A stretch of DNA of 28,800 nucleotides from contig JAHLWZ010000516.1 in assembly GCA_020536535.1 (NCBI GenBank), forward strand, positions 1 to 28,800. The letters run 5' to 3'. The position numbers and the translations under genes were made by a program. The notes beneath the pieces were generated by a model. The model was not told the DNA's origin. It ran no database searches and saw only the letters and a program-made list of their open reading frames with translations. Each line of letters opens with the position of its first letter. Within the stretch, counting starts at the first letter, position 1. The stretch comes from Pelomyxa schiedti (taxonomy: Eukaryota; Protista; Evosea). Shown piece by piece: positions 1 through 28,416 of the stretch.

Positions 1-720
1 GTAGATGTAGCATTAGTGGCATGATCGGTAGCGTGGTTGGCCACCTCGCCACCACGTGTGCTGTTGGTCGTGAATATGGGACCAACACGGCCCCGCCCCC
101 CGTTTCCACGTCTGCCCCGCGCTCCACCACAACAGGCCCTTCCCCGATCCATGCCCAGACAACGGATCAAAAAATTTGAAATTGTTTCAAATTTCCTCGT
201 CGTCCCATTATTCCGTTCACCGGGCCCCTGATGGGTTTATTAGGGGCATAATGACCCTGTTTTCCGGAGTTTTCAGGTGCTCGAAAGTTCCCAACAAAAC
301 AACAAATTAATTGAAAGAAAACAAAAACTCCCCCCCCGAAGCACCTTCAAAGAAGATGAAACAAAAAAAGGAAAACACAGAGGAAAAGAAGAAGAAAGGT
401 GACCGAAAGGGAAACCAAGCCGCGACTGCAGTGGGGTTCGGATGAACCGGTTGCAGAAAACCCCCACACAAACTCCTGGAGTGGAACCCGGGTTGCGCCC
501 CTCGCGGTGGTTGGGCTGTGGGCAGATCCATTCACGAAGGGGCTCAGCCCCTCATGGACAGAGAATAGCCAGTCCTCTCAGGCCTCTGGCGGTCACCTGA
601 ACCCCCCCACCCTGTGTCTTCCTCAAGGGGACTATTTTTTAGTGTTTTTTTATTTTGGGTCCTGTCACGCCAGCGTTGCACTTTGTACACTCGAGAAGTG
701 TCGTGCACCAACTTTTTCGA
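1..720 (-). repeat. Inverted-repeat copy A, reverse-complement homologous to 6820-7500 and truncated by the window start
   Basis: Direct comparison of revcomp(1-720) with 6820-7500 gives about 93% identity over the roughly 300-nt core (A 240-600 against B 6950-7310). This includes an 80-nt identical stretch, tcgcggcttggtttccctttcggtcacctttcttcttcttttcctctgtgttttcctttttttgtttcatcttctttg. Recognisable but decaying homology continues to A 60 / B 7490 and to A 720 / B 6820. ORF-track peptides 307..531(-) and the tail of 6702..7307(+) are nearly identical (MDLPTAQPPRGAQPGFHSRSLCGGFLQP... against MDLPTAHPPRGAPPGFHSRSLCGGFLQP...). This reflects shared DNA, not coding. Confidence 0.8.
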
Positions 721-953
721 GGACAGACAATTCGGAGTGAACCACTCTGGTATATCGCCGACACTGCTATTTCACTGACCCATCATGCTCAGTTGCAAGA
801 TTTGGCTGATAACAGCTGCACGGAATTAAATACAGTGGGGAGGTCTGGGGACTGATTTGCCTTACAAAGTTTCTCCCTTTTTTGTGGTTCTTGTTGTTGA
901 CTATTTTCACTTGTTGTTATGGTTGGAGGGTAAAATTATCAAGTGGTCACATC

Positions 954-1597
954 TCAAGAGGAACTTGTTGATGTTGTGGAAGGCAGCGGAGACACCACGG
1001 GAGTCATAGATCCCACAGTCACAACACTGCTGGAAGGAGGAGATAGAGTGTGGTGTGAGTGTGACTGCGCCGCCGTGGCCTCGGTGGCATCCACAGCCAT
1101 AAGGCTCCTCTCTTGCTCCAGCTGTTTTCGTATCTTGGATTCCTCCTCGGCTCTGAGCTGAAGCCTGCGCTGCTGAAGCTTCAGGGCACGCTGCTTCACC
1201 CGGTCTGTGCGTTCAGTGACTGTGTACATGTCACGTTTTAGCTGCACCAGCTTCTGTTGGTAGACATATGCGGCGCTGAACTGTGGTGGTTAGTTGTAGA
1301 GGTGGGACAAAGAGAGAATTTTGCGTGAAGCTAAAGTTATTGTTTGCAATTTTGTCTGGAATACTTCTCAATGCCGTCATAGCGTCTGCTGATGTTCTGA
1401 CGGCAAGGAAACATGCAGAAATTGCAACCGGTGTTGCTGCTGAGAGCTTCGTACTTCTTAAGAACGCGAATATCATTCTCCCACCGAAATGCTACACCAA
1501 ACACTCTCTGATCGTTTGTGGTCAACAAAAGACCTTTTCCAAGAACAGGAGGAAAGTCGGAAGTTCCATGGTTGGAAGTTCGGGTTGTCATACACAA
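954..1597 (-). CDS. 3' portion of a multi-exon gene for a coiled-coil protein, no family assigned
   Basis: The terminal exon is about 954-1271. It is preceded by a polypyrimidine tract and cag, and reads FSAAYVYQQKLVQLKRDMYTVTERTDRVKQRALKLQQRRLQLRAEEESKIRKQLEQERS...SSS* with exon-like codon usage and a heptad-like K/R/E/Q pattern. An upstream ORF at 1337..1597(-) (…FGVAFRWENDIRVLKKYEALSSNTGCNFCMFPCRQ…) probably supplies a further exon, but the junction could not be resolved with canonical GT/AG. The 5' exons probably lie beyond the window or are unresolved. Confidence 0.35.
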
Positions 1598-1809
1598 ATC
1601 TGTTAATCAACAGCCATGAACATTTCGGCCAGTAGCTCGTCACGTCAACCGCTCACGATTTATCAAATCGACTACATCATTGGATTATCCACTGCTCCGA
1701 TTAACATATTCACAGGTTTGCGTGTCTGTGCAGTTGAGGGGGTATTTTTTTTTTTTTGTTTACAACTGATGACTTTGTTGTTTCATTGTATTTGGCTTTG
1801 TGACTAAGT

Positions 1810-2960
1810 ATGGAGTTCCGCACAGTTGGGATTCTTGTATACACATATTTCTCAGTGGTGTCACGGGGGTTCACCACAAGGATTCCATTGTATCTTGCTA
1901 CAGGGGGAATAGTGAGAGCCCTCAGCCTTATGTCTTGGTTCTCAGCCCTTATTAGAAGGCTTTTCTCTGGGATTGACACTCTGACGGATCCCCTGTGTTG
2001 GACTGTTGGTATTCTCTCTTTTTTTTTTGAAAAGGCCAAGTTTTAACCCGGCTTGACAGAGATTACACAGTTTTGGTCTATAATGACCTGCAGGCATTAA
2101 TCCAATACTTGTTGTGAGGCTCTGAATTGACTTCGTTTTTCTTTCTATATAATTCAGCTGGTGGTTTGTTGGAATGTCACTATTCCTGGTTCTAACAGTG
2201 TACCCGCGGTGGATTCTGGGGCAAAATATATTTTTCACTGAGGGGTCATTCTTTGTTGCATGCTCTGTTGTCCCATTCCCTCTGGCTGTGGTTATAGCTG
2301 TGATCAAGTACTACGCATTTGAACGAGATGGCAACATTTGGAGCTGGTATGCCCTGTGATCGGTTTGTTTTTTATCATGACAATATTATATATAATGATA
2401 TGATTTTTATGTACTTTGTCTCCCACTACCGAATTTCTGTTCCTATGTCTGAGCTATAACGCCAAATCAAATACAGGTGTGAGAGATTTTCAAGGTTTGA
2501 GATGGTGGCACTGTCTCTTCCTGTACCTCTAGGAATCGGTCTGTTACTAGCTGCCTGTATTAAGATATTCACCATCAAGAATTATCGGCTCTCAAATCAG
2601 CCTGATAACAAAAAGCAATTGCTGAAAGCTCAAATGAAACTGTTCAGGCAACTCGCTGCATTTCCCATTGCGTATGCCATGCTGTTGACCATTCAGCTGA
2701 TTTGGGGCTACAATCAAGCATTCAATTCCACCACCACAACAGCATCACCATATCTATTTGGTGTTGACATTGTTCTCATAACTCTAGCACCCCTTGTCAT
2801 TTCCATTCTGTATGCAATGACATATCGCCACAGAGTCAAGGACACGACAATGGCCATAATGCAGAAAATAGGTGGTTGTTTGAAAAAACGACACACCAAT
2901 GAGACAGAATTATCTACCAGTGTGAAGTCTTATGAGATCAGCACTGAAACACAAGAATAG
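1810..2960 (+). CDS. Multi-pass membrane protein of at least three exons, with GPCR-like TM5-ICL3-TM6-TM7 topology in the last exon
   Basis: Three plus-strand ORF segments, 1810..2046, 2174..2359 and 2502..2960, are each dominated by hydrophobic 20-25 aa stretches. The last exon (about 2477-2960, stop at 2958-2960) encodes VALSLPVPLGIGLLLAACIKIFTI, then a basic loop KNYRLSNQPDNKKQLLKAQMKLFRQ, then LAAFPIAYAMLLTIQLIWGY, then NQAFNSTTTTASPY, then LFGVDIVLITLAPLVISILYAMTY, then a hydrophilic tail. This is a typical 7TM-receptor C-terminal half. An AG acceptor (acag) lies just upstream of 2477. The family is not recognised with certainty. Confidence 0.4.
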
Positions 2961-5377
2961 GAGTACAAAACGTAAAAAAAACCAATGTAAAGCAATATTT
3001 TAAATGCTACTTATAAAAGTTTTACAAAAAAACTATGGTTACTGCTTTGTCAACCAAATTCCTATTGCCAATCTTCCACCTGAAAAACCGAAACGGAATA
3101 AATTAAAAAGAAAAACAAGAAGGAACCAAACCTGTTGTGAAAACCTCATTGTGGAAGTACCCATCTGTTTGAAGCTGAGGCTGCAACACTTTGAGAGGTA
3201 CACTTGAAGCAGTCCCATCTAGTGAAAAGGCAGAGAATGATTGTTCGCCAGTGAAGGAATCGTCAATTGCTCTCTTCTCAGTCGTTAGTGTCCGCATTCA
3301 AAGGGAATTGCTTACTTTTAGTTCTTCCACTGTCAACCATGCCGCACTGTCTACCTCACCCACAGAAAACTTGAGGGGTTGTTCTCCTATTTACAATTAA
3401 GTTGGATGGCTAGGCACAGAATATAAGCGACCTTCTATTTCTGCAGAAAAGTAGAATACAATATGATGTGCTTTGGGAGCGCCTTCAATAATTTTTGGTG
3501 GGTAAACAGATTCATAGAGGCAAAGTGGAGTAATTGACGAGGGTGTCAAAGTAAGGCCAGTCTCTACAATGGAATTAATTCCCTGAAAAAAGGGGGAGGA
3601 GTCGCCTTCAAAAGTTTCACGTGCAACGGCAGTTTCCAAGGTCTCTCCATTATCTATTGTGAGTTAGTGTGAAAACGGAGCATGCAAAGCCTACAACCTA
3701 CATGCCCACCAGGTAGTACCCAACACCCAGGAAAAATCCTCATAGTACCTTTTTTTAGATTTGTGTAAGTAAAAAAATTAAAAAAACAAAAAAATAATAG
3801 CTGAACAAAATAAACCCAAACATCCAATAGGCTTAAAAATAAAACACAGTTACGAAACTCAGTCGGCGAGTGATTAGGACCTGCTGGCCATGTGTAGGAT
3901 GTTTCCGTATAATTATGACTGACACGGCTATACCAACATAAGGAGGTGTGTGCATAGATGCCTCCAATTCTTCCATTGGGCATCGCGGTGCGTGAATAAA
4001 TGGGATGTCTCGTGCTCTGTAATAATTACGAAAAGATAAGATGCGCTAAGCTTTTTCTTGCGTGTTGTTACACGATAGAAAGAGAGAAAGAAAGCACGAC
4101 GCACGGGTGTGGGCCAGTGCCTTTGGGTGCAATCCTAAGGCAGTCGCTGTCGAACCCCCAGGAACACATCGTGTCATCTGCACCAAGCACCTTCCTTACC
4201 AGGCAAGCATCCCCCTCGTGCCCCTCCCTCGGTCGTAGGTCCAGCGCCACCCTCGTGCTGTTGCGCAACAACATCTGATGACCTCAATGAAACGAAAGGT
4301 TGGTTTTCTAGGAAATGTGACTTGAAATCAGCGAAGGTTCAGCAAATGTGTCACGGCCATGAAATAATTCAGAGTTGTTTGTAACACACATGCACGATAC
4401 TTGACAAAGTAGGGTGCCTCAACTTTTGTGTGGTGTGAACTTGGCTAAGTCGTACAGCATTTTGTTATTAATATCGGCCAGCTCTTGTATCAGTTTGTTG
4501 AGCGCGTCTACGTTGCTGTGCACTGACTCTGTGAAACTGGGGATGACTGTTAAAGTTGCTACTGATGGCAATCAACCTTTGCATCGTCACGGCATCAGAG
4601 TTCTTTTTTGGCACTGTATTTGGCACCGCAGCTCTGGGATTTGTCTCACCTAGATTAAGCGTCTATAACGTGTGTTACTATCTGAGACCATACCTTTTGG
4701 AGTGTCACACTTTAGTTCAACCATCATGGTGGGGAGCTTTGGGCCCATGGATACCGAGCGCTTATTTGCCTTTGTGTGGTCTCCAGTGTCCAAAGATGCC
4801 GATCTGGAGTGATTGACACAAGAACGAACCACTGTGGATCTCCCGCGGCCTGGATTCCTTGCTCCCTGAGCCAGCCGCGAGATCTTGACAGATGATGGAC
4901 ATATATACTCGGCATCATGTGGTCGCTTTGCCTCAAGAGATCTTTCTGTGTGTACCTCTTGCATCTTGACAGAGATCTTTCCCTTCTTTTTTTCTTTTGT
5001 TCAATGAATACCACAACAGGGGAAGTGTGCCCCATAAATACAAAGTGCCAGGTAACTCGTGCCATGCCAATCACGTAGATAGAAGAACTTAATTTTGGTG
5101 GCGGGCCCATAATTCAGCGCACGCGGAAAATCCATTTATTAACTGAGCAGAGTGGGGTCTTGTTTTCGTCCTCTGGGGGGTGGCAATGGTGCTCCAATGT
5201 GAACGCGGTTCATCGAAATAACTATCATGCAGAGATAATACCCTCATCAATCCATCGTTGGTGCGCCTCGCCTATCACGCGAGGTTGCACCCGCCTTTCC
5301 TACCCGGAAGCAGACTGGGCCAGGAGAGGTAAACCCCGCGTTACTCCACTCACCAACTCCTCAAGGATTTACTTTTT

Positions 5378-5379
<2 letters not shown>

Positions 5380-5409
<30 letters not shown>
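5380..5409 (+). repeat. Homopolymer T30
   Basis: An uninterrupted T run lies 3' of the gankyrin gene, which sits on the opposite strand. It is one of many 13-30 nt T tracts in the window. A T26 at 8379-8404 is similar. Confidence 0.95.
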
Positions 5410-5410
<1 letters not shown>

Positions 5411-5535
5411 TGAGTTGGAAACTTGAAAACACACAGGTCAGTTGCTCTCTCTTCTCTATCCATAACTCCTTATTCTTTTGTTTTTTTTTTGTTTACAAAA
5501 CGCAAAAAGGGAAGAAGCACAGGTTCCTGTAGTAA

Positions 5536-6619
5536 TCAACTCCTCAGAAGTCGTCTTATCTCGTCGTCAGCCAACATAAGAGGGGTGGTGTTATCAGAAT
5601 CTGGTTCGTTTGGCGAAGCACCAGCAGCCACGAGTCTCATTGCAATGTCCTTGTGTCTCATGGAAACTGCAACGTGAAGGGGTGTCTCGCCGTTCTGATT
5701 CTTGCTATCTACATTAATCCCTATTTGTGTTTTGGTTAATGGTTTGGATTTTGGTTATTGGTTGATTGCTTGGGTTTGAGAGTACTGTGAGGGGAGGGCA
5801 AAGCATACCTCGGCACGAAAGGAGCAAATCCACAACGGCTAAATGACCACTGCTGGAAGCTCTGTGAAGTGAAGTGTTTCCATAACGGTCTCTGATGGAT
5901 GGCTTTGCTCCAGCAGCGAGAAGTTTTTGAACTATCTCTACGTGGCCTGCAAACGAGAGCCTCTTAGTTACATGATTAAACCTTTAGGAAGCCCACCCTT
6001 GCTGCAGGCGTATTGAAGAGCAGTATTTCCTTGGTTGTTTGGAGTGTTTACGCCAATATCCCTGCAAAAAAGGATTAGATAAAACAAGAAGTTTGCAATT
6101 GTATATGCAGCAGTGCTATTCCAAAATTGAGCACAACATACGGCACTCTCAGCAACATCTGCACAATTGGTACGTGCCCGGCACTGCTTGCAGACATAAG
6201 GGGTGTCCAGCCAGCACCGTCGACCGGTTGTGTGTCAGCACCCAGCTCCATCAGTCGCGATGCCATCGCAACATCGCCTCGGGAACAGCCCCAATGAAAT
6301 GCAGTGCGCTTGTCAGAGTCTTTTTTTGTTCGTTAGTTTGTTGGCTTGTTGCATTAGTGTTTGTTTGGAGAGAGGATTATTGTATTATGTTGGAAAGGGC
6401 GTGGGATCGAGCGTCGAAGAAAGAGCTAGTTATGGGACATGGCACAACAAAGCGCGCACCAGGTTGGTCCACAGTGACCTGCCTGGAAGTGATCATGGCA
6501 GAAACTCTCTCCACATTTCCAGATTGGACGGCATCAAAGAATTCCTTGACAACCCCTGACGTGGCATCAGCCCCGCCGAGTAGAGACGCCGTCGACTTCG
6601 TGGATGACGCGGCTGCCAT
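5536..6619 (-). CDS. PSMD10: 26S proteasome non-ATPase regulatory subunit 10 (gankyrin)-like ankyrin-repeat protein, five exons, 241 aa
   Basis: The model is complement(join(5536..5720,5809..5946,5997..6061,6142..6319,6460..6619)), total 726 nt with consistent phases. The protein is MAAASSTKSTASLLGGADATSGVVKEFFDAVQSGNVERVSAMITSRQVTVDQP|DSDKRTAFHWGCSRGDVAMASRLMELGADTQPVDGAGWTPLMSASSAGHVPIVQMLLRVP|DIGVNTPNNQGNTALQYACSK|GHVEIVQKLLAAGAKPSIRDRYGNTSLHRASSSGHLAVVDLLLSCR|GINVDSKNQNGETPLHVAVSMRHKDIAMRLVAAGASPNEPDSDNTTPLMLADDEIRRLLRS*. It has six or seven ankyrin repeats. Repeat-by-repeat, it resembles human gankyrin: RTALHWACSAGH, DDAGWSPLHIAASAGRDEIV, NQNGCTPLHYAASKNRHEIAVMLL, QDTEGNTPLHLACDEERVEEAKLL. 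Donors include GTATGT, GTGGGC and GTATGC. Acceptors follow pyrimidine tracts, except exon 2 (aaaaaaag). Confidence 0.85.
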
Positions 6620-6819
6620 TGTGCTTTGTGATTCTAATCGATAATCCAAGAAAAGGAAATCTCTTGCACTGTTTTCAAGCTGTCATCTCAGGGATATTTC
6701 CTTGGTCTACGAGGATCATCGAAGCCCAAAACCTTGCAACAATGATGCATTTCACTTTGAGTTGAACCTGGCACCCGGCTGTTGCACTCTCCTGGCCTTT
6801 TGGGCCGAGGAATTGGCGA

Positions 6820-7500
6820 GGCTAGACCAAATACCGCAAGCCAATCACTACCCAAACATCACCACACTTCTTTTTCTGATGTCACAAGGAATTTACCCAA
6901 AGACCGAACAAAAAAAAAAGTCCCCTTCTGGAATACACAGGACCAGGGGGGTAAGTCACCGTCAGAGGCCTGAGAGGACTGGCTATTCTCTTTCCCCAGA
7001 GGAGTTTATCCCTCCGAAAATGGATCTGCCCACAGCCCACCCACCGCGAGGGGCGCCACCCGGTTTCCACTCCAGAAGTTTGTGTGGGGGTTTTCTGCAA
7101 CCGATTCATCCGAACCCCGCTGCAGTCGCGGCTTGGTTTCCCTTTCGGTCACCTTTCTTCTTCTTTTCCTCTGTGTTTTCCTTTTTTTGTTTCATCTTCT
7201 TTGGAGGTGCTGAGGGGGGGGAGTTTTTGTTTCATTCAATTAATTTTTTTTGTTGGGAACTTTCGAGCACCTTACAACTCCCAGAAATCTTCCTCTGCAG
7301 TGACTAATAAACCCATCCCCGGCCCGGTAAACCGAATAATGGGACAAGGCAACACAATTTGTTACCCTTATCTGTACCTGGGGCGTTGTGGGCGAACCAA
7401 TACCTGCGGCACCCACGTGGGCATGTTTGCATGTGGTCTTGTTTCGACCCCCTTGGGGCTGGGTCTGCCCAAGTGTGCGTGTTGTGTCATCGGCCTGAAA
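6820..7500 (+). repeat. Inverted-repeat copy B, partner of 1-720, containing an 80-nt polypyrimidine core at about 7131-7215
   Basis: See copy A. It lies about 200 bp upstream of the gankyrin start at 6619, which is on the minus strand. Copy B carries an intron-like insert at 6951-6999 (gtaagt...tttccccag) where copy A has non-canonical ends (gttcag...catgag). The 201-aa track ORF 6702..7307 runs through the stop-free pyrimidine tract and is judged non-coding. Confidence 0.8.
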
Positions 7501-7831
7501 CTCCGCGTTTGGGGCTTTGCTTTTCCACCACCAAGGTGGTTCGGGTGCGTTGTGTGGCCTCTGCAACCACGCTCCATTCCAGGCAGCCACAACAGAGTGA
7601 GAATGGCCCCAGCAAAGCCATCACATCCCAATACACAACCTGTGCAGCTTTTGCCCGGCGGACGGTTTCGTTGCTGAGTGTTGGTGCATTTGCCCCAGGG
7701 TTATGCAACTGTCTCAGCATGGGCCACACGCAGATAATCACAGGCAGGTTCCCAGTGCAGAAAGCCAAAGCCCACAGTATGTATGTAAGTATGGGCGGCA
7801 AGCCTGCAGCTTCTTCTTTCTTTCCATCCAT

Positions 7832-7952
7832 GAGTAAATAATTCAATTTTCTGGTACAGATTTGACAGTTCCCCTTTAAAAAAAAATTCGAAAATAAATC
7901 AGTTTTAATTTTTTTTCCCCCCGTTGTAACCAGAAAATTGAATTATTTACTC
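7832..7952. repeat. Foldback / hairpin element with 23-bp perfect inverted arms
   Basis: The arm gagtaaataattcaattttctgg at 7832-7854 is the exact reverse complement of 7930-7952 (ccagaaaattgaattatttactc). The 75-nt spacer contains A9 (cccctttaaaaaaaaatt) and T8 (aattttttttcccccc) runs that can pair to extend the stem. No clear target-site duplication was found. Confidence 0.7.
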
Positions 7953-9307
7953 AATTGTTCCTCCCGTTGGTTCTCGCTGTAGCTTTAGAACTGCTATTCT
8001 AACCGACAGATACTCGTATCTGCTAAACAGAAACTCAAACGAGAGATGTACACTCTCAAATGTCCTGGGACAATTGCCAGCACAATATACTGCGTGTTCT
8101 GGGTCACTGTCTCAGATTGAGGATTATGAATCATTAACATCTCTTCAGTTGCGCTCAATCTCATCGCTTTCGTGACAGGTGAGGAGGTGAGGTGGTGATT
8201 GGCCTTGGTCTCACAATATCTGCTACGACACAGATGACATTCCTGCACTTTGTTGATTGCGCGGCGTTGCTGATTGCACCCGCTTTCGTCATCTACTACG
8301 CCACCGCATTGTATATTTTTTTTTTATTATTTATTAGACTCTGCAACACAGTGTCTGTCTTATCTTGTTGACCAAGGGTTTTTTTTTTTTTTTTTTTTTT
8401 TTTTGAATCAGGGGAGAGGAGAGGGCTGTTGTGCCTTGCTTCTACGGGGTTTTGGGATATGGTGGCACGCAATTAATTAAAGTGTTCCTTTTCTCTCTTT
8501 GTTTTGAATCCAACAACAAAAATCAGATGGTTGTACTCGCAACGTTCATGCCGAGTGTATCTGCCTTCCTTTCTTTCAACGTTTTTCAGGTTAGTTTCCA
8601 GTAACCCAATAAGGTTTTACCCTCACACCCATAAAAAGGAGGTGCTCAAAGTAGTTATATCGTGGTTAGACTTATGTCTAATGGGAGTTGTCCTGTCTAA
8701 TGTTCCAGGGTTAGATTGTCCTTTTCCTGTCTTCTCTCGACACTTATAGTCACGGCAGAAAACACAAGGAATTACGAGTTCTGGGTGTTGGACTTGGATG
8801 GGGTGCTGCTGAGGCCATTGTACTTAGAATTGTGCCTCTATGGATGCGCGCCCGCGCTCCTGAGTGGGATTGGTCCCATTTGTGCTCTGTTCTTGAAGCA
8901 AATTCCAACCTTGTAAGCAACAGTGTAGTTGTTATCACTCTGTAATATCTTGAAGCTTCAAGCTATATGCTTTGCCCAATTGGTTGCAAGATACCAATTG
9001 ATACCCAAGCTGAAGACCGAGAAAGACTCCCGGAAGGAGATTCTCATTGTGATAGCAATTTACACTCTGGTATCTGGTGTTGGAGAAAGGTATCACAAAT
9101 TTACAAACAATTTTCAGCACTCACCACATCCCAAGTTTCTTAAGATTGGCTCTTGGATTGGGCCCCTTCCCCTGCCTATTATTCCATGTTGCTTGTGTTG
9201 GTGCCCTCTGGTACCGTGTCAGACAGACAAAAATGAAAATTTAAGGAACAAAACAAATTTTTGTTTCATTTTTCTTCGGCCGTTTTAAGAGGGCAATCCC
9301 CCACTTG

Positions 9308-10833: not shown

Positions 10834-11890
10834 GGAGGAAAAGTGTGCAAAAAGAAATTTCCTCTTCCCATTATTCAGGGCACCGTTGTTGAAAAAAAAT
10901 TCAACAAAATAAGCACTGAGAAAAAACGAAAACGAAGACAAAGGAAAAGAAAGGGGCGGGAAGGCATGCAAACTGTGATGCTGTATTTCACACAAACTTC
11001 TGGAGTGGTGCCTTCATGGGGGAGGGTGCGGACAGACCCAACATTGGGGGGCTTGCCCCGCTTGGCAGTGGACAGTCGGCCCTCCCACTTGACTTCTGAC
11101 TCTCCCTTGCTCTACTTTGTGAATTCTTTTTTGTTTTTTTGAAACTATCACAGTGATTGTTCCGTTTTAATTATTTCACAAGTTGTGGTTATATGAAGGG
11201 ATGCTGTCAAGTTCAATTGCCGTCACTGTTGCTCCCCCAATTCTACAATCATAGCAGCGTGAGCTTAGTGTTGCTTGCCAAGCTCACCCCAGATACTAGT
11301 GTGACTGTGGTTTCATTCCGCGGCATTGTGAGGAAGAACTCACTTACAAATGTGGCTGATGGAGGCCTCACTTGTACTCGGACTTGGTTATTTCCGCCAT
11401 CATATTGCAGCTGTAAGAGAAACATTGGATGGAAGTCAAAAAATGTGTATATAAGAGGATTATACCCTGAGAGCAGTGCCAGGAACTAGTTGGGGAATGT
11501 TGGGTTCATCCTTTCCGCAAACCCTCCAGCTTTTAGTTTTGCAGCAAAAAGTTACACCAATGGTAGTGTATGACATTGTTTCCCCAAAGCAGCTTTCGCC
11601 GGTAAGTGGAAACACAGACGATGCAACTCCAAAACTGATACAACTTTGGTCACCCAGGGTATCAATGACAACCTCAAGGCACACTCTGTAGAATGTTTGT
11701 CATAGATACCAGTATTGGTTGCACATACTTTTCTGTAGCTGCAAACTGACTGGAAAAAGCCTTGGGGAAGTTTCCTTTATCGCCAACTCGTTGTATGGTA
11801 CGGCGATCAGAAGAAATGGTGAGCGAACGTGAGACCCTGAGTGAAATGACATTGAAATTTAAATTAAGGTGGCATACAAAGCCCACTCCG

Positions 11891-13319: not shown

Positions 13320-14096
13320 TCAAAGTGGCAAATACAGGCAAAAGGCGTCGACACCATTGAGGTAGTACCTCTTGAGGCGTTTTACTTTGAGGAACCCAAG
13401 GGATGTGTAGAGTCCCAATGAGCCTTGGTTTGTAACTTCAGTTTCTAGTACAACCTCGTCACACTTGTCCTCTAGCATTCTGCTTATTACGGATTTGACA
13501 AGAGCCGACCCTAAAATAGATGGTTGTTGGGAATCGTAAACAATTGTATGGCGATAAGTCAAACCTATTCCTTGCTTTCTCCAAGCTTTATCTACAGCAA
13601 GCATTGCAATATACCCTCTCATGGTGTCACGTTTAGATCTATCAAGTTTGCACACAATAGCACCAACACACTTGCCTGTTTGCTTGTCTCTAGCCTTCAT
13701 TGATTAGATTTTGTTTACCCCATAACGCAAACTACCAAAAAAACCAAGATTTACATACAAAAAAAAAAAAAAAAAGAGAAAGAGTAAGAAACAAACCAAC
13801 AAACACAATGAAGGCCAGTTGTGTATGAAATATCTATATGTGAACACAGAGTAGGGCTCGCTGAGCTCCAGCTCCATCAGGGCCATGATCTCCCCGAGGT
13901 CCATGTCGTCCCTGTACGCGTCGATGCGCCACATCGCGCCAGCCATCCTCGCCGCGTCGGCCGCGGCAGCCGCCTCCATCTGCATGCGCCTCTGCCTCGC
14001 CAGCTCCTCCGCCCTGCCCCCCTCGCCCCCGTTGCTGTGATCGTGGTGGTGGGCCCCCGCCCCGCTCCCGTGCTCATGGCCGCACCCGCACGACAT
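13320..14096 (-). CDS. NAA30: N-alpha-acetyltransferase 30 (NatC catalytic subunit, Mak3)-like GNAT acetyltransferase, two exons, about 224 aa
   Basis: The model is complement(join(13320..13694,13797..14096)). Exon 1 has a G/H/A-rich N-terminus, then [43 protein letters not shown] with a GTTTGT donor. Exon 2 reads [106 protein letters not shown]. This is nearly collinear with human NAA30: [24 protein letters not shown]...[10 protein letters not shown]...[10 protein letters not shown]...GIG...DEVVLETE...[15 protein letters not shown]. The intron contains an A18 run (13758-13775), which is a polypyrimidine tract on the coding strand. Confidence 0.85.
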
Positions 14097-14208: not shown

Positions 14209-17200
14209 ATGCAGCCGACAGGCGGGACAGGGCGCGGAGCAGCACACCGGTCCAGCGGCGGCGGTGGCCGTGCACAGCCCGATAATGATAATCTGCAGCA
14301 CCCGGCGCTCGACGCGGGGGAAGAAGAGGAAGAAGAAGCGCCCCCGCCATGGCTGGAGCAGCACTTGGCGTCCTTGAGTGCCTCGGGCATTGACCCCACC
14401 CAGTTAGGCTTAGACCTCAACTTCCCACAGCGCCACGGCCACCAGCCACAGCAGCAACAGCAACATCGCCAGCAACAACAACAGCAGCAACCTTATCAAC
14501 AACAACCGAGAGGCGTTGGCGTCGGCGTAGGCGTAGGCGTCGGGCCGGATTATGCTCATCTTGACCCCGTTGTCAACTTGTTCGCTCAGTATCCGAATGG
14601 CTTCGACCACAACGCCTTCACATTCCTCCTGGACTCTCCTCCGACGGATACTAACGTCGGCACCTCCTCCGCTGGTACATCGACACCCACTGCAACTTCG
14701 ACTTCTACATCCGCCTATGCATCTACTACGACGAGGAGGTGTTCTTCCACTTCATCTCCTGTTATTAATACTTGTTCCGCTTCCGCTTCTGCTTCTTCTT
14801 CGAGTTTGTATCCTCCCAGTGGTGGAACAATTGGCACTGTGAGGAAGGGTTTGGGCTCAGCACTTCCTGGAACTTCCAACACCAACGCTTCGTCGCTGTC
14901 GCTGCCTAGCGCTGGAATTCCGGTGAATATATCACCCCATTTGCCACCTGTCTCCACTGCAACAAGTTCTTCCACTCCTCTATCTAGTGCTACTCCTGCA
15001 TCATCAAGTGCTCTTCCTGCTACAGGAGGGGCCACAATGGCGGTGGATAAAAGAGGGGTGGACAGGAGTGAGGTTAACAATATGGGGGAGAGTGATCAAA
15101 CCGTGGACGGCAGTGCTTTTGGATTTGGATTTGGTTTTGATTTTGGTTTTAGTTTTGGTGTCAGTGGTGGAAGTGAAGGCAACAGAGCTCGTTCCATTGG
15201 AAGTAGTGGTAGTCCAGACGATCCAATGCATGGAGATCAGACCCCCGCTCCTTTTTTGCCTGTTCCAAGTCAGAAATTCACCTGTGTTGAATTCCCAGGG
15301 TAACAGTTTCCTTCTTTTTTTTTTTTTTTTTTTTGAGAATGTACTCTCGTCTTGATGCGGGGCTACAATCTCTACATGTAGTACTATTTACACTGTTGCA
15401 GGGCAATTACAGGTGACGTTCAAAATGCACTTGCCTCGTTTGGAGGCGCCACTGCTGTTTCTTCTGCTCTACGGTGTCATCATGCCGGCAAATATGACAA
15501 TATGCTTCAATTCGCCCCTCGTGGTGGTCTGTTTGCAAGGCCTGCATATGCTCACAGAAAAGTTGCATGCAACATGCTCCTGCAAGTGAAGCACACAAAA
15601 CCCAGGCTTAATTCAAGTCCGACATCTTCGTCAATACCTGAAGAGGCAGACGAGAGGAAGGTTGCGAGTGCTGAAATTATTGGTGTTATTGATAGCGTGT
15701 TTCAATTCTCAGGACTATTTGACTTTCAGGTCAGATTGCCACGGTTTTTTTTGCTTCCACTCACTTGGTGCAGTTCATTGTTCAAGAGTCTGCAATGGAC
15801 GAAGAATCCCTTGTAGCAGACACCTTGTTGAACATCCCTCCCCCTGTGGGTATATCAAGTCTGTTTATTCCCTCATTTTAATTCAGGTATTTTCTCGTGT
15901 TGATAGGCCAATTCCCTATCGTTTCCGACCAAACCCACTTTGGAAGGCTGAAAAATCTCCGTCGGGGTCTACAGAGGCCATGTCGTTCAAGCTGAAAGTG
16001 AGGTAACTGCTCTCTGGTCCCAATCCCAATCTTGAAGTCCTTCCTCACTGCATCCTTAGCCAGAAGAGGAGAGCACTCACTTTGCTTCCCTTCAATGCTC
16101 CCATACTTATGCAAGCACCTCTAGAAACCTTTCCCAGTCTTCGACCCGGCGATTCAGCCATTATGGAGCCTCTCACTGCACTATTCAAGGCCAGGTACCA
16201 GTTGCATTAAGCTGCTTTTTCTCAATCACACCAGATTTGTGTGGTCGCAAGGTTGCCTTCACGAAGCTCTGAGTAAAACCATTCTAGTGCCCTTAAAAAC
16301 ACTGAGGAGACTTCTGCCATACGTTGCCTTCCGTTTTCAGGGAGGACCTTGGCGAACTGCACTTGTGGCCTATGGCTATGACCCAAGAAAGGTTTCTTGT
16401 AAATAAAATAGATCCGATCTCAAAAAATGCAGGACCCCGCGAGTAGAATACACCAGGTGATAACGGCAACCACTCTTTAATACTGTTTTCACATTGACAC
16501 AGACAAAGGGGCGTACTGCATCTAACTTACTTGCGTTAGGTTGGTGAATTACGAATCCGGGAAGCTCTTCCAAAAAAAAGTACCGTAATGGAGCAGTACT
16601 TTCCCCGACAAAGAAGGCAGCTCTCAGTTTCCCTTGAAGTATCACACTCCACTGTGTTTTCTGTTTAATTGAATCAAGGACCTTTCACAAGGGGATCTGC
16701 CTGACCTTTCCAAAGAAGTTGATCATGATACATTCAGACTGCGAAGCAAACCATACCAGCAAACCTTCACTTACATGTTCTCTGATATTGACAATGTAAA
16801 TATGCAGCGGCTTCTAGCAGAAGTACCCCCTCTTGGTCAGTGTACTGCTAAATACGGCTGGCTGCCACTGATTGCCTGCAAGGCTCTCTTTGAGATTGCC
16901 CGAAAAATGGCAATAGGATTGGCAAGGGGTTGTCCCCAAAACGAGGTTAATTCCCTTTTTTCCGTACGAAGAAAAATTCTTCAGATTCTCAACGCCGGCT
17001 TAGGTTTCCAATTATGGCAAAGAGGAAGCCGATGCAGTGCTAGAGCAGCTGCGCAACAAAAAGCCAGACGACCTCCTGGCCGAAACCTCCGCAAGCAAGC
17101 CGGCATTCCCACATCTCAGTGTATATGCCGCCGTAGCAGCAGCAACACCCATGATGCTACCCCCTGTAAGTGACAAAAACCTCCTCAGTGCCGAATCCCT

Positions 17201-25631: not shown

Positions 25632-28416
25632 TTAGTTGCCAGAGGCAGCAGGAGCAGAGACCAACCCAGAGGCAGTGTTGAACAGGTTGATTGGGCTGTT
25701 GCCGTCGGTGATCATGAGGGACTTGAGGCCGAGGCCGCTGAGCAACTTGGCCTGCATCTCTGGCCCAGCCTGTGCGATTGCCCTGATTGTGTCTGGGCCA
25801 ATGGCAGTGACGACCTCTGCGAACTTGGTGGTCTCAATGTCGGCGAGGTCGCGGGTGCGCTTGACCTCCAGCTCGGTGAGCTTCTGCTTGTGGGCGAGCT
25901 CCATGCCCTGGCGCTTCTTGAGCTCGTCGAGCGCGGCCTTGGCCGTGATGGTGGCGCTGTTGGCGGACAGGTTGGCCTGCTTGACGGCGGCCTCGCCCTC
26001 GATGGTCGACGCGGCGGCGAGGGCGCGGGCCTCGGCGGTGGCCTGGCCGGTGCTCTCGACTGTGGCGCTCTGGGCCTGGAGCTCCAGCAGGGACTTGCGG
26101 GCCCTCTCGGCCTCGGCCTCGTCCGCGAGCTTCTGGCGCTCGAGGCGGCCGCGGGCCTCCTGGTCGAGGCGCTCGGCCTCCTGGCGGGCGGTGGCCTCCT
26201 GGGACTTGGTGGTGATCTCGATGGCGAGCTGGACGGACTTCTGGAGCGAGTCGCGCGTGCGCTGGTCGACGGGCTCGACCGACTGGATATCAATGTTGGT
26301 CACGACCAGGTTGTTGCTGCTGAACACGAGTCGGTCGTTGATCTCTCCGGTCTGCGCGTTGCGGCCAAAGACAGACTCCTGTATGATGTCGACAGAGTGC
26401 TTGTGGAAGGCATCGAATGAGGTGGAGGCGACGACTCCACGGACGCGGGCGCTCAGGGCCTTGCAGAGGTCACCAACTGGGAAAATGTGGTTAGGGAAAA
26501 GAGATAACCTAAAGAGGGGGATAAGGCCTACCAAAGTCTGGTGTGCTGAAGATTCGGCCTGCTGCCTCGTGGTCGCTCTGGTCAACCTCGAAGTGCCAGT
26601 TGTAGCTCAGCTTGAGGGCCAAACGGGCGTGGTCGGCAGTCTCGACGGTGATCTGGTCTGTCATGAAGTCCGGGCCAAGGAACAGAGAAATGGCGTGGAT
26701 TTGGTTGGATTGTTTGGGGACACCACCGCTCATGTTGAGTGTTGTGAAGTGCTCGTCAGGCTGGAGCAAGACAAGATCTGGACCAAAGACTACACGTGAT
26801 TTCTTCTTCTCATAGTCGTACACTTGTACAGCTGCACCGTGAGGTACACGGTAGCTGACAACGCGGGTTGGGTCGCGAGCCTTGGGAGCTGAGGCCTTGA
26901 TGTCATTCTTGTCTCGAGAGGCATCAACCAGAAGGAGCTTATCAACCTCAGAGGGGAGAATCTTTGACCAGAGTTCCTCATTGGGGGCAAGCATGTATGA
27001 AGACCCAATATGAGCGCGAATCTTACCAGTGGTAATATCACGGACATAAATACCCTCATTCTCATCAAGAGGAATAGCCCTCCTCTTCTCAACCACCTCT
27101 ACCTCAACTGGGGGGATGAAGTCACGAGGACCATAGAGCATCCACCTGTCTCCTGGGAGCTTCTTCTCAGATGGGAGAGCGGATCGAGCGCGGAGAAGAA
27201 GTGCCTCCTCCTGAGCAAGCACGTACACATCCTGGATTCCATTCTCAAGCCTCTCACCAGGGTAAAGGAAGAACGAGGCCTCGCCGCGTCTGAGTTCGCG
27301 TGCTCCGAAGCGGGGTCTGCCATCTTGTCCAATTGGATCAACAACAACGCAGAACTGTCGGTTGTTGAGGGTGGTGATCTTGACAATACCCTTGACTTGC
27401 TCGTAGACATCGGTGATGTAGGTCTCGGTGTCTTGCATGGTAACAAGCCACTCCTCACCAGCCTTGCGGACCTTGTTGAAGACATCGGAGAATGTGTTGT
27501 TGGCAACAAGGTGGAGAGCTGTTGTGGGGGTAAGAACCACAGCACTGACGGTTCCTACAATTTCCTCGTTGACGTCTGGGAGGTAGGCACCACTCTTGCG
27601 AACCAACCATTGCTCACCAGCGCATCTCTTCTGGCTAGTGCTGTCAGTGCAGTCGAGGCGGGCGCGGAGCTTAAGGGCCTCGTTCTCCTTGATGATAGTG
27701 CAGTTGACCTTCTCAACAACTGACTCCTCAATTCTGGGGGTATAAGTTGAAGGTCCCTTGAAGAGCCACTCGTCACCAGCAGTGTGGTGAGCGCCAGACT
27801 TCTCATCAAAATCACGAACGGCGCGGAGGCGAAGAGCCTGGTTAGCTTGAACAACAACCATGGGAGTTGGTTTCTCTGCACAATAAGTTAAGAACGAAAC
27901 AAGAAACAGGGAGAAAAAAAGCGAACAAGGAAAGTACCCTTAAGAGACTCCCCGGGGAAGAGAGGGAAAGGATCCTGGGCGAAACGGATTTCCTCATCTC
28001 CGTGTCTGATCTTGGGCATGCCAAACTGATCGAGGATGGGGGTCCCCTTCTTGTCCTTCTCAACTGGGTTGGCAATCATGCAGTAGTTGCGTGGGGGGAC
28101 AGTAATCATAGCCTCTGTTAAAATTCGGTCAACGTTAAACAGCTTTCCCACTAAATTCTTCCAAACAAATAATAAAGTATTCATCGCAAATACGACATCG
28201 AATGTAAATGCCCAAGGACGCTAGTAACGAAGGAGAAAAGGAAAAAAAAGAAAAAAACAAGCAGTAATTAAAAAACAGACCTGGTCCAAGAATGATGTTC
28301 TCATGATCTCTGCGGGTGAAGGTTCGTGGACCGACGACAACGGTGGTGACATTTGTGTTGTTGTCGAAGACGTGGATGTAGTGGTTGGGCTTGATTCGAA
28401 TGACTGACTCGGGCAT
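25632..28416 (-). CDS. MVP: Major vault protein, four exons, 833 aa, complete
   Basis: The model is complement(join(25632..26476,26532..27875,27938..28114,28281..28416)), 2502 nt with all phases consistent. The N-terminus [45 protein letters not shown]|[17 protein letters not shown]... parallels human MVP [61 protein letters not shown]. The long exon 3 carries the MVP repeats (…GEEWLV…[42 protein letters not shown]…[22 protein letters not shown]…[31 protein letters not shown]…[29 protein letters not shown]). Exon 4 carries the shoulder and cap helix (…[51 protein letters not shown]…[47 protein letters not shown]...*). Donors are GTCTGT, GTACTT and GTAGGC. Acceptors are aacag, gtgcag and cccag. 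Confidence 0.95.

Follow-up and report, generated by a model that had tools for sequence, protein, structure and literature searches.

The stretch of DNA analysed here, 28.8 kb in length and hereafter called the window, carries two similar segments in opposite orientation, and it raises the question of what such a pair represents: a special DNA structure, a functional unit such as an RNA gene or a regulatory module, or members of a family of repeats. Self-BLASTN of the window aligned the two segments, designated copies A and B, over 441 nt (202-640 against 7345-6912) with 86.2% identity (E 1.75e-141). The copies are separated by 6.3 kb and share a gap-free core of 241 nt (301-541 and 7010-7250) that is 92% identical. 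Since they differ at 67 of 439 columns, an assembly or MDA-chimera artefact was ruled out.

Limits of the repeat and a third copy

The initial annotation described an inverted repeat of about 700 bp, with copies at 1-720 and 6820-7500, the former running off the edge of the window. A highly significant repeat is present, but it is shorter, at about 440 bp per copy (202-640 and 6912-7345). A three-copy profile extends weakly beyond this core, to 131-680 in copy A and about 6880-7430 in copy B, and these positions mark its maximum. No significant similarity between A and B was found in the flanks (1-200, 7346-7500 and beyond) by local and boundary-anchored alignments compared with shuffles (19/500 and 76/500; 216/1000 and 98/1000). 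A continuation of copy A past the window edge is not demonstrable, because the flank alignments fail to beat shuffles.

A search of the window by nhmmer, using a profile of A and B only, detected a third, diverged copy, C (E 6.5e-10, 31 bits), which was absent from the earlier account. Since this copy exists, the A/B pair belongs to a dispersed intergenic family of at least three copies, in support of one of the alternatives in that account, which saw the pair as members of a dispersed family of non-coding elements. Copy C is approximately 55% identical to A and approximately 55% identical to B, and the A/B differences that can be polarised against it are evenly divided between the two (20 versus 23). 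The copies and their component parts are as follows.

Copy A, core: 202-640, minus strand (BLASTN to copy B; nhmmer, 5e-165)
Copy B, core: 6912-7345, plus strand (BLASTN to copy A; profile)
Copy C: 10854-11140, about 287 nt, minus strand (nhmmer, E-INS-i alignment)
5' A-run, in the orientation of copy B: A10 at 6910-6919 of copy B, plus strand
20-nt box CCACTCCAGAAGTTTGTGTG: A 465-484, minus; B 7067-7086, plus; C 10989-11008, minus
84-nt run identical in A and B: B 7120-7203, A 348-431, plus in B (the longest identical run)
3'-terminal box GAATAATGGGA: A 203-213, minus; B 7334-7344, plus; C 10866-10876, minus
Hypervariable block 1: B 6995-7014, A 537-556, plus in B (identity profile, clustering test)
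Hypervariable block 2: B 7271-7303, A 244-276, plus in B (identity profile, alignment, clustering test)

The unit is approximately 290-440 bp long and is composed of an A-run end, a 5' half that is rich in GC, partly palindromic and contains the 20-mer, a pyrimidine-rich tract and an end marked by GAATAATGGGA; the A-run, the 20-mer, the tract and the 3' box are common to A, B and C. The A-run is represented in copy A by A6 and A7 (plus-strand T-runs at 635-640 and 645-651) and in copy C by A7CA6 (11127-11140, minus strand). B and C carry the same 20-mer, from which A departs by a single mismatch; with up to three mismatches allowed, the box occurs three times in the window, compared to 0.00 expected. 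That a copy with about 55% identity elsewhere has kept it perfectly suggests a degree of selection, a point against reading the unit as a mere relic. The 3' box, an 11-mer, has three matches, every one of them within a copy (0.38 expected), and is followed by AGG..AAATTT in the alignment of the three copies. No tandem repeats were found within the unit.

Both hypervariable blocks are of equal length in A and B. The first (about 50-65% identity) forms a hairpin in each copy (GGGGCTGAGCCCC in A, GGAG..CTCC in B, GGGGCAAGCCCC in C), with z = -4.1 on the purine strand, a value that is not robust after multiple-testing correction. The second (about 40-50% identity) is missing from copy C. In the E-INS-i alignment, copy C lacks about 30-60 nt and a further 85 nt or so of the A/B interior; internal deletions are typical of decaying repeat families. 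As for the 49-nt GTAAGT...CAG insert (6951-6999) attributed previously to copy B, the segment is present in both copies with a single 1-nt gap relative to copy A, and it includes a 29-nt identical block; only the contexts of its terminal dinucleotides differ. The reading of this segment as a spliced insert is thus not supported.

Coding capacity and genomic setting

The unit is non-coding. A protein-coding exon was rejected on the copy-B strand, where 17 of 20 A/B differences are non-synonymous across the three frames, and on the other strand, where stop codons occur in all frames and the sole readable frame has only non-synonymous differences. Codon-usage scores are about -0.09 for the repeat versus +0.07 to +0.10 for real exons. 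For the 201-aa ORF that spans copy B, a search of 1.84e9 representatives gave no homologue, the single match being of low complexity. Paralogy of the flanking genes was likewise rejected: the ORF at the left edge and ORF119 (7487-7846, minus strand) give no alignment, homologues of ORF119 were not found, and neither was a thioesterase paralogue downstream of A or B.

The genome is gene-dense and archamoebid-like, and the three copies occupy different contexts in both orientations. Copy B lies within a non-coding spacer of 1.6 kb. The ankyrin-repeat ("gankyrin") gene that had been placed beside it is indeed to its left, on the minus strand, with its ATG (about 6619) 293 nt from copy B. Copy C starts about 36-74 nt past the inferred stop of an upstream minus-strand gene and stops about 20-32 nt short of the first ATG (10833) in an ORF leading into a thioesterase-domain gene, whose Pfam match lies on the exon downstream of the copy. 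Scans for exact matches to a 26-mer, a 21-mer, a 23-mer and CCACTCCAGAAGTTTGTGTG found no further copies in metagenome, prokaryotic-genome and viral contigs, among which close relatives are absent.

Origin and possible functions of the unit

We regard A, B and C as one non-coding interspersed family, probably what is left of a non-autonomous mobile element. The family is unclassified and most likely an ordinary relic rather than a special DNA structure. Its copies would have landed in, or been copied into, intergenic spacers, and A and B would be its two most closely related members, placed 6.3 kb apart in opposite orientation by chance.

No hallmark of any transposon class was found, which counts against a mobile element; we agree with the earlier account that neither a transposase nor a target-site duplication (TSD) is to be found. 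MITEs typically have terminal inverted repeats of at least 10 bp. No such repeats were found in A, B or C: the only terminal inverted repeat in A and B is GTCCC...GGGAC, imperfect and 5 bp long (7/8 when extended), and the ends of A and B are weakly inverted (GTCCCCTT and AATGGGAC), with the 5' arm missing from copy C. The units are 287-440 bp in size and non-coding, and three of them occur in 28.8 kb. A k-mer search of the copy flanks gave no convincing TSD, only short matches, which are parts of the unit rather than TSDs because they are shared between copies. The features that mark SINEs are a 5' head that descends from tRNA, 7SL or 5S RNA and contains an internal Pol III promoter, a 3' tail of A-rich or simple-repeat sequence, and TSDs. 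No tRNA-, 7SL- or 5S-like head was detected (0 genes by ARAGORN; no Rfam match up to E 10), and the A-run lies 5' on the pyrimidine-rich strand, the wrong end for a SINE tail. Solo LTRs have TG...CA termini with a TSD of 4-6 bp; the candidate TG...CA pair in copy B (6881/7359) has non-matching flanks.

The initial annotation emphasised a perfectly conserved, uninterrupted polypyrimidine core of 80 nt that could adopt H-DNA or triplex conformations. The identity of A and B stands, and extends over 84 nt, but the tract is not uninterrupted: the identical run is 81% pyrimidine, broken by 13 G and 3 A, the segment 7131-7215 (T45 C20 G16 A4) is 76% pyrimidine, and the longest pure run is 21 nt (7152-7172). 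The tract resembles H-DNA-forming homopurine-homopyrimidine mirror repeats in its strand-asymmetric composition and differs from them in its 16 interruptions in 84 nt; it is not a long uninterrupted mirror repeat, the best mirror being 13 nt at most (TTTCTTCTTCTTT). The triplex idea is not supported, since the purity on which it was founded is absent from the sequence. That the core is a structural element, maintained for its ability to form H-DNA or a triplex, is therefore extremely improbable, even though a pyrimidine-rich tract occupies the same position in all three copies despite their divergence; copy C retains the composition only, not the 84-nt sequence, and the window holds about ten other tracts of 60-100 nt with 77-81% purine or pyrimidine, as well as several pure runs exceeding 21 nt. 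We also consider it very unlikely that each unit is a gene for a non-coding RNA of about 300-400 nt, transcribed from the purine-rich strand (plus in A, minus in B, plus in C) and ending at a T-run that serves as a Pol III-type terminator. T6-T10 runs end all three copies on that strand, the A/B consensus fold had z = -4.0 there versus -1.4 on the other strand (column shuffle), and the block 1 hairpin signal is confined to the same strand. The fold evidence vanished, however, when the clustering of substitutions was preserved in the null (z -0.65 to -0.86) and in the three-copy test, where the energy z was -1.3 to -1.65 and compensatory pairs were no commoner than in shuffles (P = 0.30 and 0.65). 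Single-sequence folds gave z of -1.35 to +0.48, Rfam gave no match, either at the gathering threshold or with E relaxed to 10, no tRNA-like gene was found, internal T4 runs interrupt A and B, and copy C does without about 115-145 nt of the interior; the RNA gene offered as an alternative in the initial annotation is accordingly not borne out by database matches, fold stability or covariation.

A regulatory role is somewhat more probable, but still unlikely. The unit would then be a reusable cis-regulatory module under selection that combines a terminator side with a promoter side: the 5' A-run would mark where the upstream gene ends, putative regulators would bind the 20-mer and the pyrimidine tract, and the GAATAAT...AAATTT end would act as a putative TATA/initiator-like core promoter for the adjoining downstream gene. 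Copy C fits this description, in that it fills nearly the whole spacer between two same-strand genes and ends just before the thioesterase-gene ORF; moreover, A-runs often occur 20-150 nt ahead of ATGs in the window, the 20-mer does not vary between copies whose identity is otherwise 55%, and conserved blocks alternate with variable blocks of equal length. Against it, a credible downstream gene in that orientation exists for just one of the three copies; the sequences that follow B (7345-8233) and A (1-200, on the minus strand) are not coding-like and have no homologues, the orientation relative to neighbouring genes is inconsistent (B points away from the ankyrin gene), the terminal boxes were not found upstream of other genes in the window, and a compact genome places any intergenic element next to the start or end of a gene. 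The broader proposition of a lineage-specific, selectively maintained intergenic module, be it a portable terminator/promoter cassette or an RNA gene of about 300 nt, we hold to be rather unlikely; CCACTCCAGAAGTTTGTGTG, the positionally conserved hairpin and the pyrimidine tract would then be functional, and the unit would have been copied to many gene boundaries of a pelomyxid or archamoebid genome. A purely local origin of the copies, by duplication without mobility, is unlikely too, with A and B inverted, an older C nearby, the core kept by intrachromosomal gene conversion and no wider family. The profile search placed all three copies within 11 kb and none in the remaining 17.7 kb of the window, transposon hallmarks were not found, and the clustered identity matches conversion tracts; yet the ends of the unit are discrete and alike in three unrelated contexts, the flanking DNA shows no significant homology, and a dispersed family is more parsimonious than three separate small duplications of one unit.

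Mosaic identity of A and B and comparison with known systems

Within the interspersed family that we favour, the A/B differences show strong clustering (variance/mean 4.3 versus 0.8), and an identical run of 84 nt has P of about 1e-4 under evenly scattered differences. This clustering, together with the lack of conservation of the 84-nt block in copy C, points to conversion or recent shared ancestry rather than to family-wide selection. The mosaic of one identical block and two scrambled blocks is best accounted for by patchy gene conversion between the inverted copies together with clustered, palindrome-associated mutation; family-wide constraint on the tract is a poorer explanation. A and B may have been homogenised by gene conversion. 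They also qualify as a recombination substrate, being inverted copies on one molecule with 86% identity over 441 nt and an 84-nt identical run. Recombination between them could occasionally flip the 640-6912 interval, so that the inversion proposed earlier is plausible by analogy. The sequence itself shows the repeat and its limits, copy C, the blocks held in common, the absence of coding capacity and the clustered differences, whereas mobility, gene conversion and inversion are inferences.

If this is an ordinary repeat family, its value is practical: the assembly needs it masked or annotated, its copies flag places where inversion or gene conversion could occur, and it adds a repeat family to those of the barely studied anaerobic amoebae. 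If, on the other hand, the family proves to lie systematically at gene boundaries, it would represent a reusable promoter/terminator cassette.

Gene-converting inverted segmental duplications, such as palindrome arms, likewise show patches of perfect identity in diverged inverted copies on one chromosome. Classical palindrome arms are kilobases long and more than 99% identical, whereas the A/B arms are about 440 bp and non-coding, and a third, dispersed copy is present. MITEs and unclassified DNA-transposon-like repeats such as ERE2 share with the unit a short length, an intergenic occurrence in more than one copy (three for the unit, in this window), internal-deletion variants and, in the case of MITEs, the absence of coding capacity. 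The ERE2 elements of Entamoeba possess terminal inverted repeats of 19-22 bp and TSDs of 3-14 bp (PMC2657916); the inverted termini of the present unit are just 5-8 bp, are lost in copy C and are accompanied by no detectable TSD.

Intergenic interspersed repeats of similar size are well documented in Entamoeba genomes (PMC2657916). Compared by description, the unit resembles EhSINE1-3 in being non-coding, a few hundred bp long, intergenic, archamoebid and devoid of a poly(A) tail, and differs from them in that a partner LINE, a shared LINE-type 3' end and TSDs were not seen. The host, moreover, is not Entamoeba: the best MVP match is to Mastigella (79%), and the GC content of the window is about 46%. 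Mastigamoeba balamuthi was rejected as the source because its genome has a GC content of 60.7% (PMC8136499). In E. histolytica, inverted pairs of EhSINE1 flip the spacers between them, with 85% identity in a pair 500 bp apart and 100% in a pair 12 kb apart (PMC3787063); A and B, at 86% and 6.3 kb, are comparable to these. Should A and B flip the five-gene segment between them, the stress-inducible inverted-repeat recombination of Entamoeba would extend to a free-living relative.

Extent and divergence of the inverted pair

Self-comparison of the window by BLASTN pairs positions 202-640 with 7345-6912 (441 aligned nt, 86.2% identity, E = 1.75e-141), and reveals no second self-match comparable to it. 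The copies of the non-coding repeat considered here are the following:

Copy A, 202-640, minus strand: first member of the inverted pair
Copy B, 6912-7345, plus strand: second member of the inverted pair
Copy C, approximately 10854-11140, minus strand: a third, shorter and diverged member

The inverted repeat is a real feature, which the initial annotation had partly mis-described by assigning about 700 bp to each copy. Outside 202-640 and 6912-7345 the identity between A and B drops to background, both local and boundary-anchored alignments of the flanks are no better than those of shuffled sequences (19/500 and 76/500; 216/1000 and 98/1000), and a profile of all three copies extends the A/B match to no more than about 131-680 and 6882-7427. 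The A/B unit is therefore about 440-540 bp long, with 80% identity over the extended 525 columns. The flank alignments likewise lend no support to a copy A that runs past the window edge. The core identity, put previously at about 93%, is 92% over the gap-free 241 nt delimited by the repeat finder (301-541 and 7010-7250). An assembly or amplification artefact is ruled out, since A and B differ at 67 of 439 columns.

These differences are strongly clustered (variance-to-mean ratio of 4.3 per 20-column bin, compared to 0.8 expected). The longest identical run, 84 nt (348-431 in A, 7120-7203 in B), would have P ~1e-4 if the differences were evenly scattered. Because the sequence of this block is not conserved in copy C, it is attributed either to putative gene conversion or to a recent ancestor shared by A and B, and not to family-wide selection. 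Two nearly scrambled blocks of equal length in both copies (A 537-556 and B 6995-7014; A 244-276 and B 7271-7303) coincide with hairpin-forming sequence, which in copy A takes the form of perfect short palindromes (GGGGCTGAGCCCC and GCCCCT...AGGGGC). Quasi-palindrome template-switch mutation, or selection on a stem, would be expected to leave such a pattern.

Two finer details of the original description require revision. The supposedly uninterrupted 80-nt pyrimidine tract at 7131-7215 has the composition T45 C20 G16 A4, and its longest pure pyrimidine stretch is 21 nt (7152-7172); the 84-nt identical run is similarly mixed (T45 C23 G13 A3). Pure runs of comparable or greater length occur elsewhere in the window, together with about ten similarly skewed tracts of 60-100 nt. 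The 49-nt GTAAGT...CAG segment at 6951-6999, formerly taken for an insert peculiar to copy B, can be aligned with copy A throughout, with a single 1-nt gap and a 29-nt identical block.

The third copy and the common landmarks

An nhmmer profile built from A and B alone matches 10890-11111 on the minus strand (E = 6.5e-10, low compositional bias). The limits of copy C were set by direct reading and by E-INS-i alignment of the three copies, which shows a collinear series of landmarks in all of them.

Landmarks common to copies A, B and C, listed 5' to 3' in the orientation of copy B
1. 5' A-run, in A, B and C
2. GAATxCACAxxG
3. GTCAGArGyC
4. Short GC hairpin: GGGGCTGAGCCCC in A, GGGGCAAGCCCC in C, GGAG..CTCC in B
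5. TGGrTCTGyCCrCA
6. The 20-mer CCACTCCAGAAGTTTGTGTG: 3 in the window, 0.00 expected
7. Pyrimidine-rich tract
8. TTTCAAywA
9. CGGT...GAATAATGGGA, then AGG..AAATTT; the GAATAATGGGA box occurs 3 times in the window, in the copies only

Two segments of the A/B interior, one of about 30-60 nt and one of about 85 nt, are absent from copy C, whose identity to A and to B is 55% in each case. Sites that differ between A and B match C equally often for both (20 versus 23). The 20-mer is nevertheless identical in B and C at this overall identity; by our own estimate a perfect 20-nt run would arise by chance at such divergence in roughly 1% of cases, and the box may be under some constraint. No fourth copy is detectable in the 28.8-kb window using the three-copy profile.

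Genomic setting

The window is gene-dense eukaryotic DNA with introns. Most of its 1-kb bins have a GC content of about 40-51%, within an overall range of 39-60%. Pelomyxa schiedti is an intron-rich pelomyxid (PMC8887013), and the GC content of Mastigamoeba balamuthi is 60.7% (PMC8136499). The major vault protein (MVP) gene (25632-28416, minus strand) has as its best database match a Mastigella eilhardi transcript, at only 79% identity, which places the sequence in or near the Archamoebae.

The three copies lie in unrelated intergenic contexts, and their orientation relative to the neighbouring genes is inconsistent. Copy A is located between the window edge, where short ORFs are uninformative, and the stop (954) of a minus-strand gene. 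Copy B begins 293 nt upstream of the ATG (6619, minus strand) of an ankyrin-repeat gene and faces away from it, within a 1.6-kb stretch (6620-8233) bounded on the other side by the DUF2053/TMEM147 gene (ATG 8234, plus strand). This stretch, which seems long relative to other gene spacings read in the window, contains no ORF that has homologues, and its codon usage is not coding-like. Copy C takes up almost all of the spacer that separates the inferred end of a zinc-finger gene on the minus strand (~11.18-11.22 kb) from ATG 10833, the first of an ORF running into a thioesterase-domain gene.

The spacer upstream of TMEM147 also holds a perfect 25-bp inverted repeat (7831-7855 and 7929-7953; TGAGTAAATAATTCAATTTTCTGGT and its complement) around a 73-nt A/T-rich segment, forming a 123-bp foldback, MITE-like unit that occurs once in the window. 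At 1591-1616, the ATG of an ORF on the minus strand (exon 1337-1597) and that of a plus-strand multi-pass membrane (Jiraiya/GPCR-like) gene stand head to head about 24 nt apart, so that the divergent promoters would be overlapping or extremely short. Long A/T homopolymers occur in introns or spacers (T30 at 5380-5409, T26 at 8379-8404, A17 at 13759-13775 and T20 at 15315-15334), and upstream of the start codons of the MVP, N-acetyltransferase and TRAF-like genes there are repeatedly A-runs of 8-13 nt at a distance of 20-150 nt; such tracts may represent a promoter or 5'-UTR feature general to the genome. Poly-Q, (GV)n, (GF)n and Ser/Thr/Ala runs abound in a 364-aa ORF (14209-15303, plus strand) that is divergently oriented to the N-acetyltransferase-like gene; the spacer separating the two measures about 110 nt and includes a 13-nt A/T run.

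Nature of the proposed repeat family

Protein-coding function of the unit was rejected: translation in the three copy-B-strand frames makes 17 of 20 A/B differences non-synonymous, and on the opposite strand the frames contain stop codons. The unit shows no coding-like codon usage, and no protein homologues were found for it. It matches no known RNA (Rfam, tRNA head), and its RNA structure is not significant. Single-sequence folds give z-scores of -1.35, -0.81, +0.48 and -1.16. The A/B consensus fold reaches z = -4.0 on the purine-rich strand (plus for A and C, minus for B) under column shuffling, but only -0.65 to -0.86 when the clustering of substitutions is kept, and the three-copy fold energy gives z = -1.3 to -1.65. 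The compensatory pairs in the three copies (7 and 5) are not in excess over shuffled alignments (P = 0.30 and 0.65), and a single hairpin block with z = -4.1, on one strand only, is lost on correction for about 70 windows. An ncRNA gene, one of the readings proposed initially, would be transcribed from the purine-rich strand as far as the T-run and is quite improbable.

As in the initial annotation, no target-site duplication was found at the copies. The terminal inverted repeat measures just 5-8 bp and is missing from copy C, and the unit carries neither a tRNA or 7SL head nor a 3' A-tail. Examined feature by feature, the copies do not qualify as SINE, MITE, LTR, Rfam or H-DNA elements; the only class with testable features to which the pair would belong, judging from its sequence, is that of inverted homologous repeats capable of recombination. 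With its tract interrupted and a longest pure run of 21 nt, a triplex-forming structural element, suggested earlier, is scarcely credible.

On balance, we favor A, B and C as members of an unclassified, non-autonomous interspersed repeat family of intergenic spacers, of which A and B would be two close relatives in inverted orientation; these may exchange sequence and could flip the 6.3-kb interval between them. A set of purely local duplications combined with conversion is unlikely. Somewhat less likely still is a selected intergenic terminator or promoter cassette, a proposal that draws mainly on the distance of 20-32 nt between copy C and a downstream ATG, and also on the A-runs common upstream of ATGs in the window; the inconsistent orientation of the copies speaks against it.

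In the favored interpretation the feature is of an ordinary kind, a diverged family of non-coding repeats, in an under-sampled lineage. Among documented systems, the intergenic SINEs and ERE repeats of Entamoeba come closest to it (PMC2657916). For the A/B pair, the closest experimental analogue is provided by inverted EhSINE1 pairs, one with 85% identity 500 bp apart and another with 100% identity 12 kb apart, which recombine and thereby flip the spacer, more so under stress (PMC3787063).
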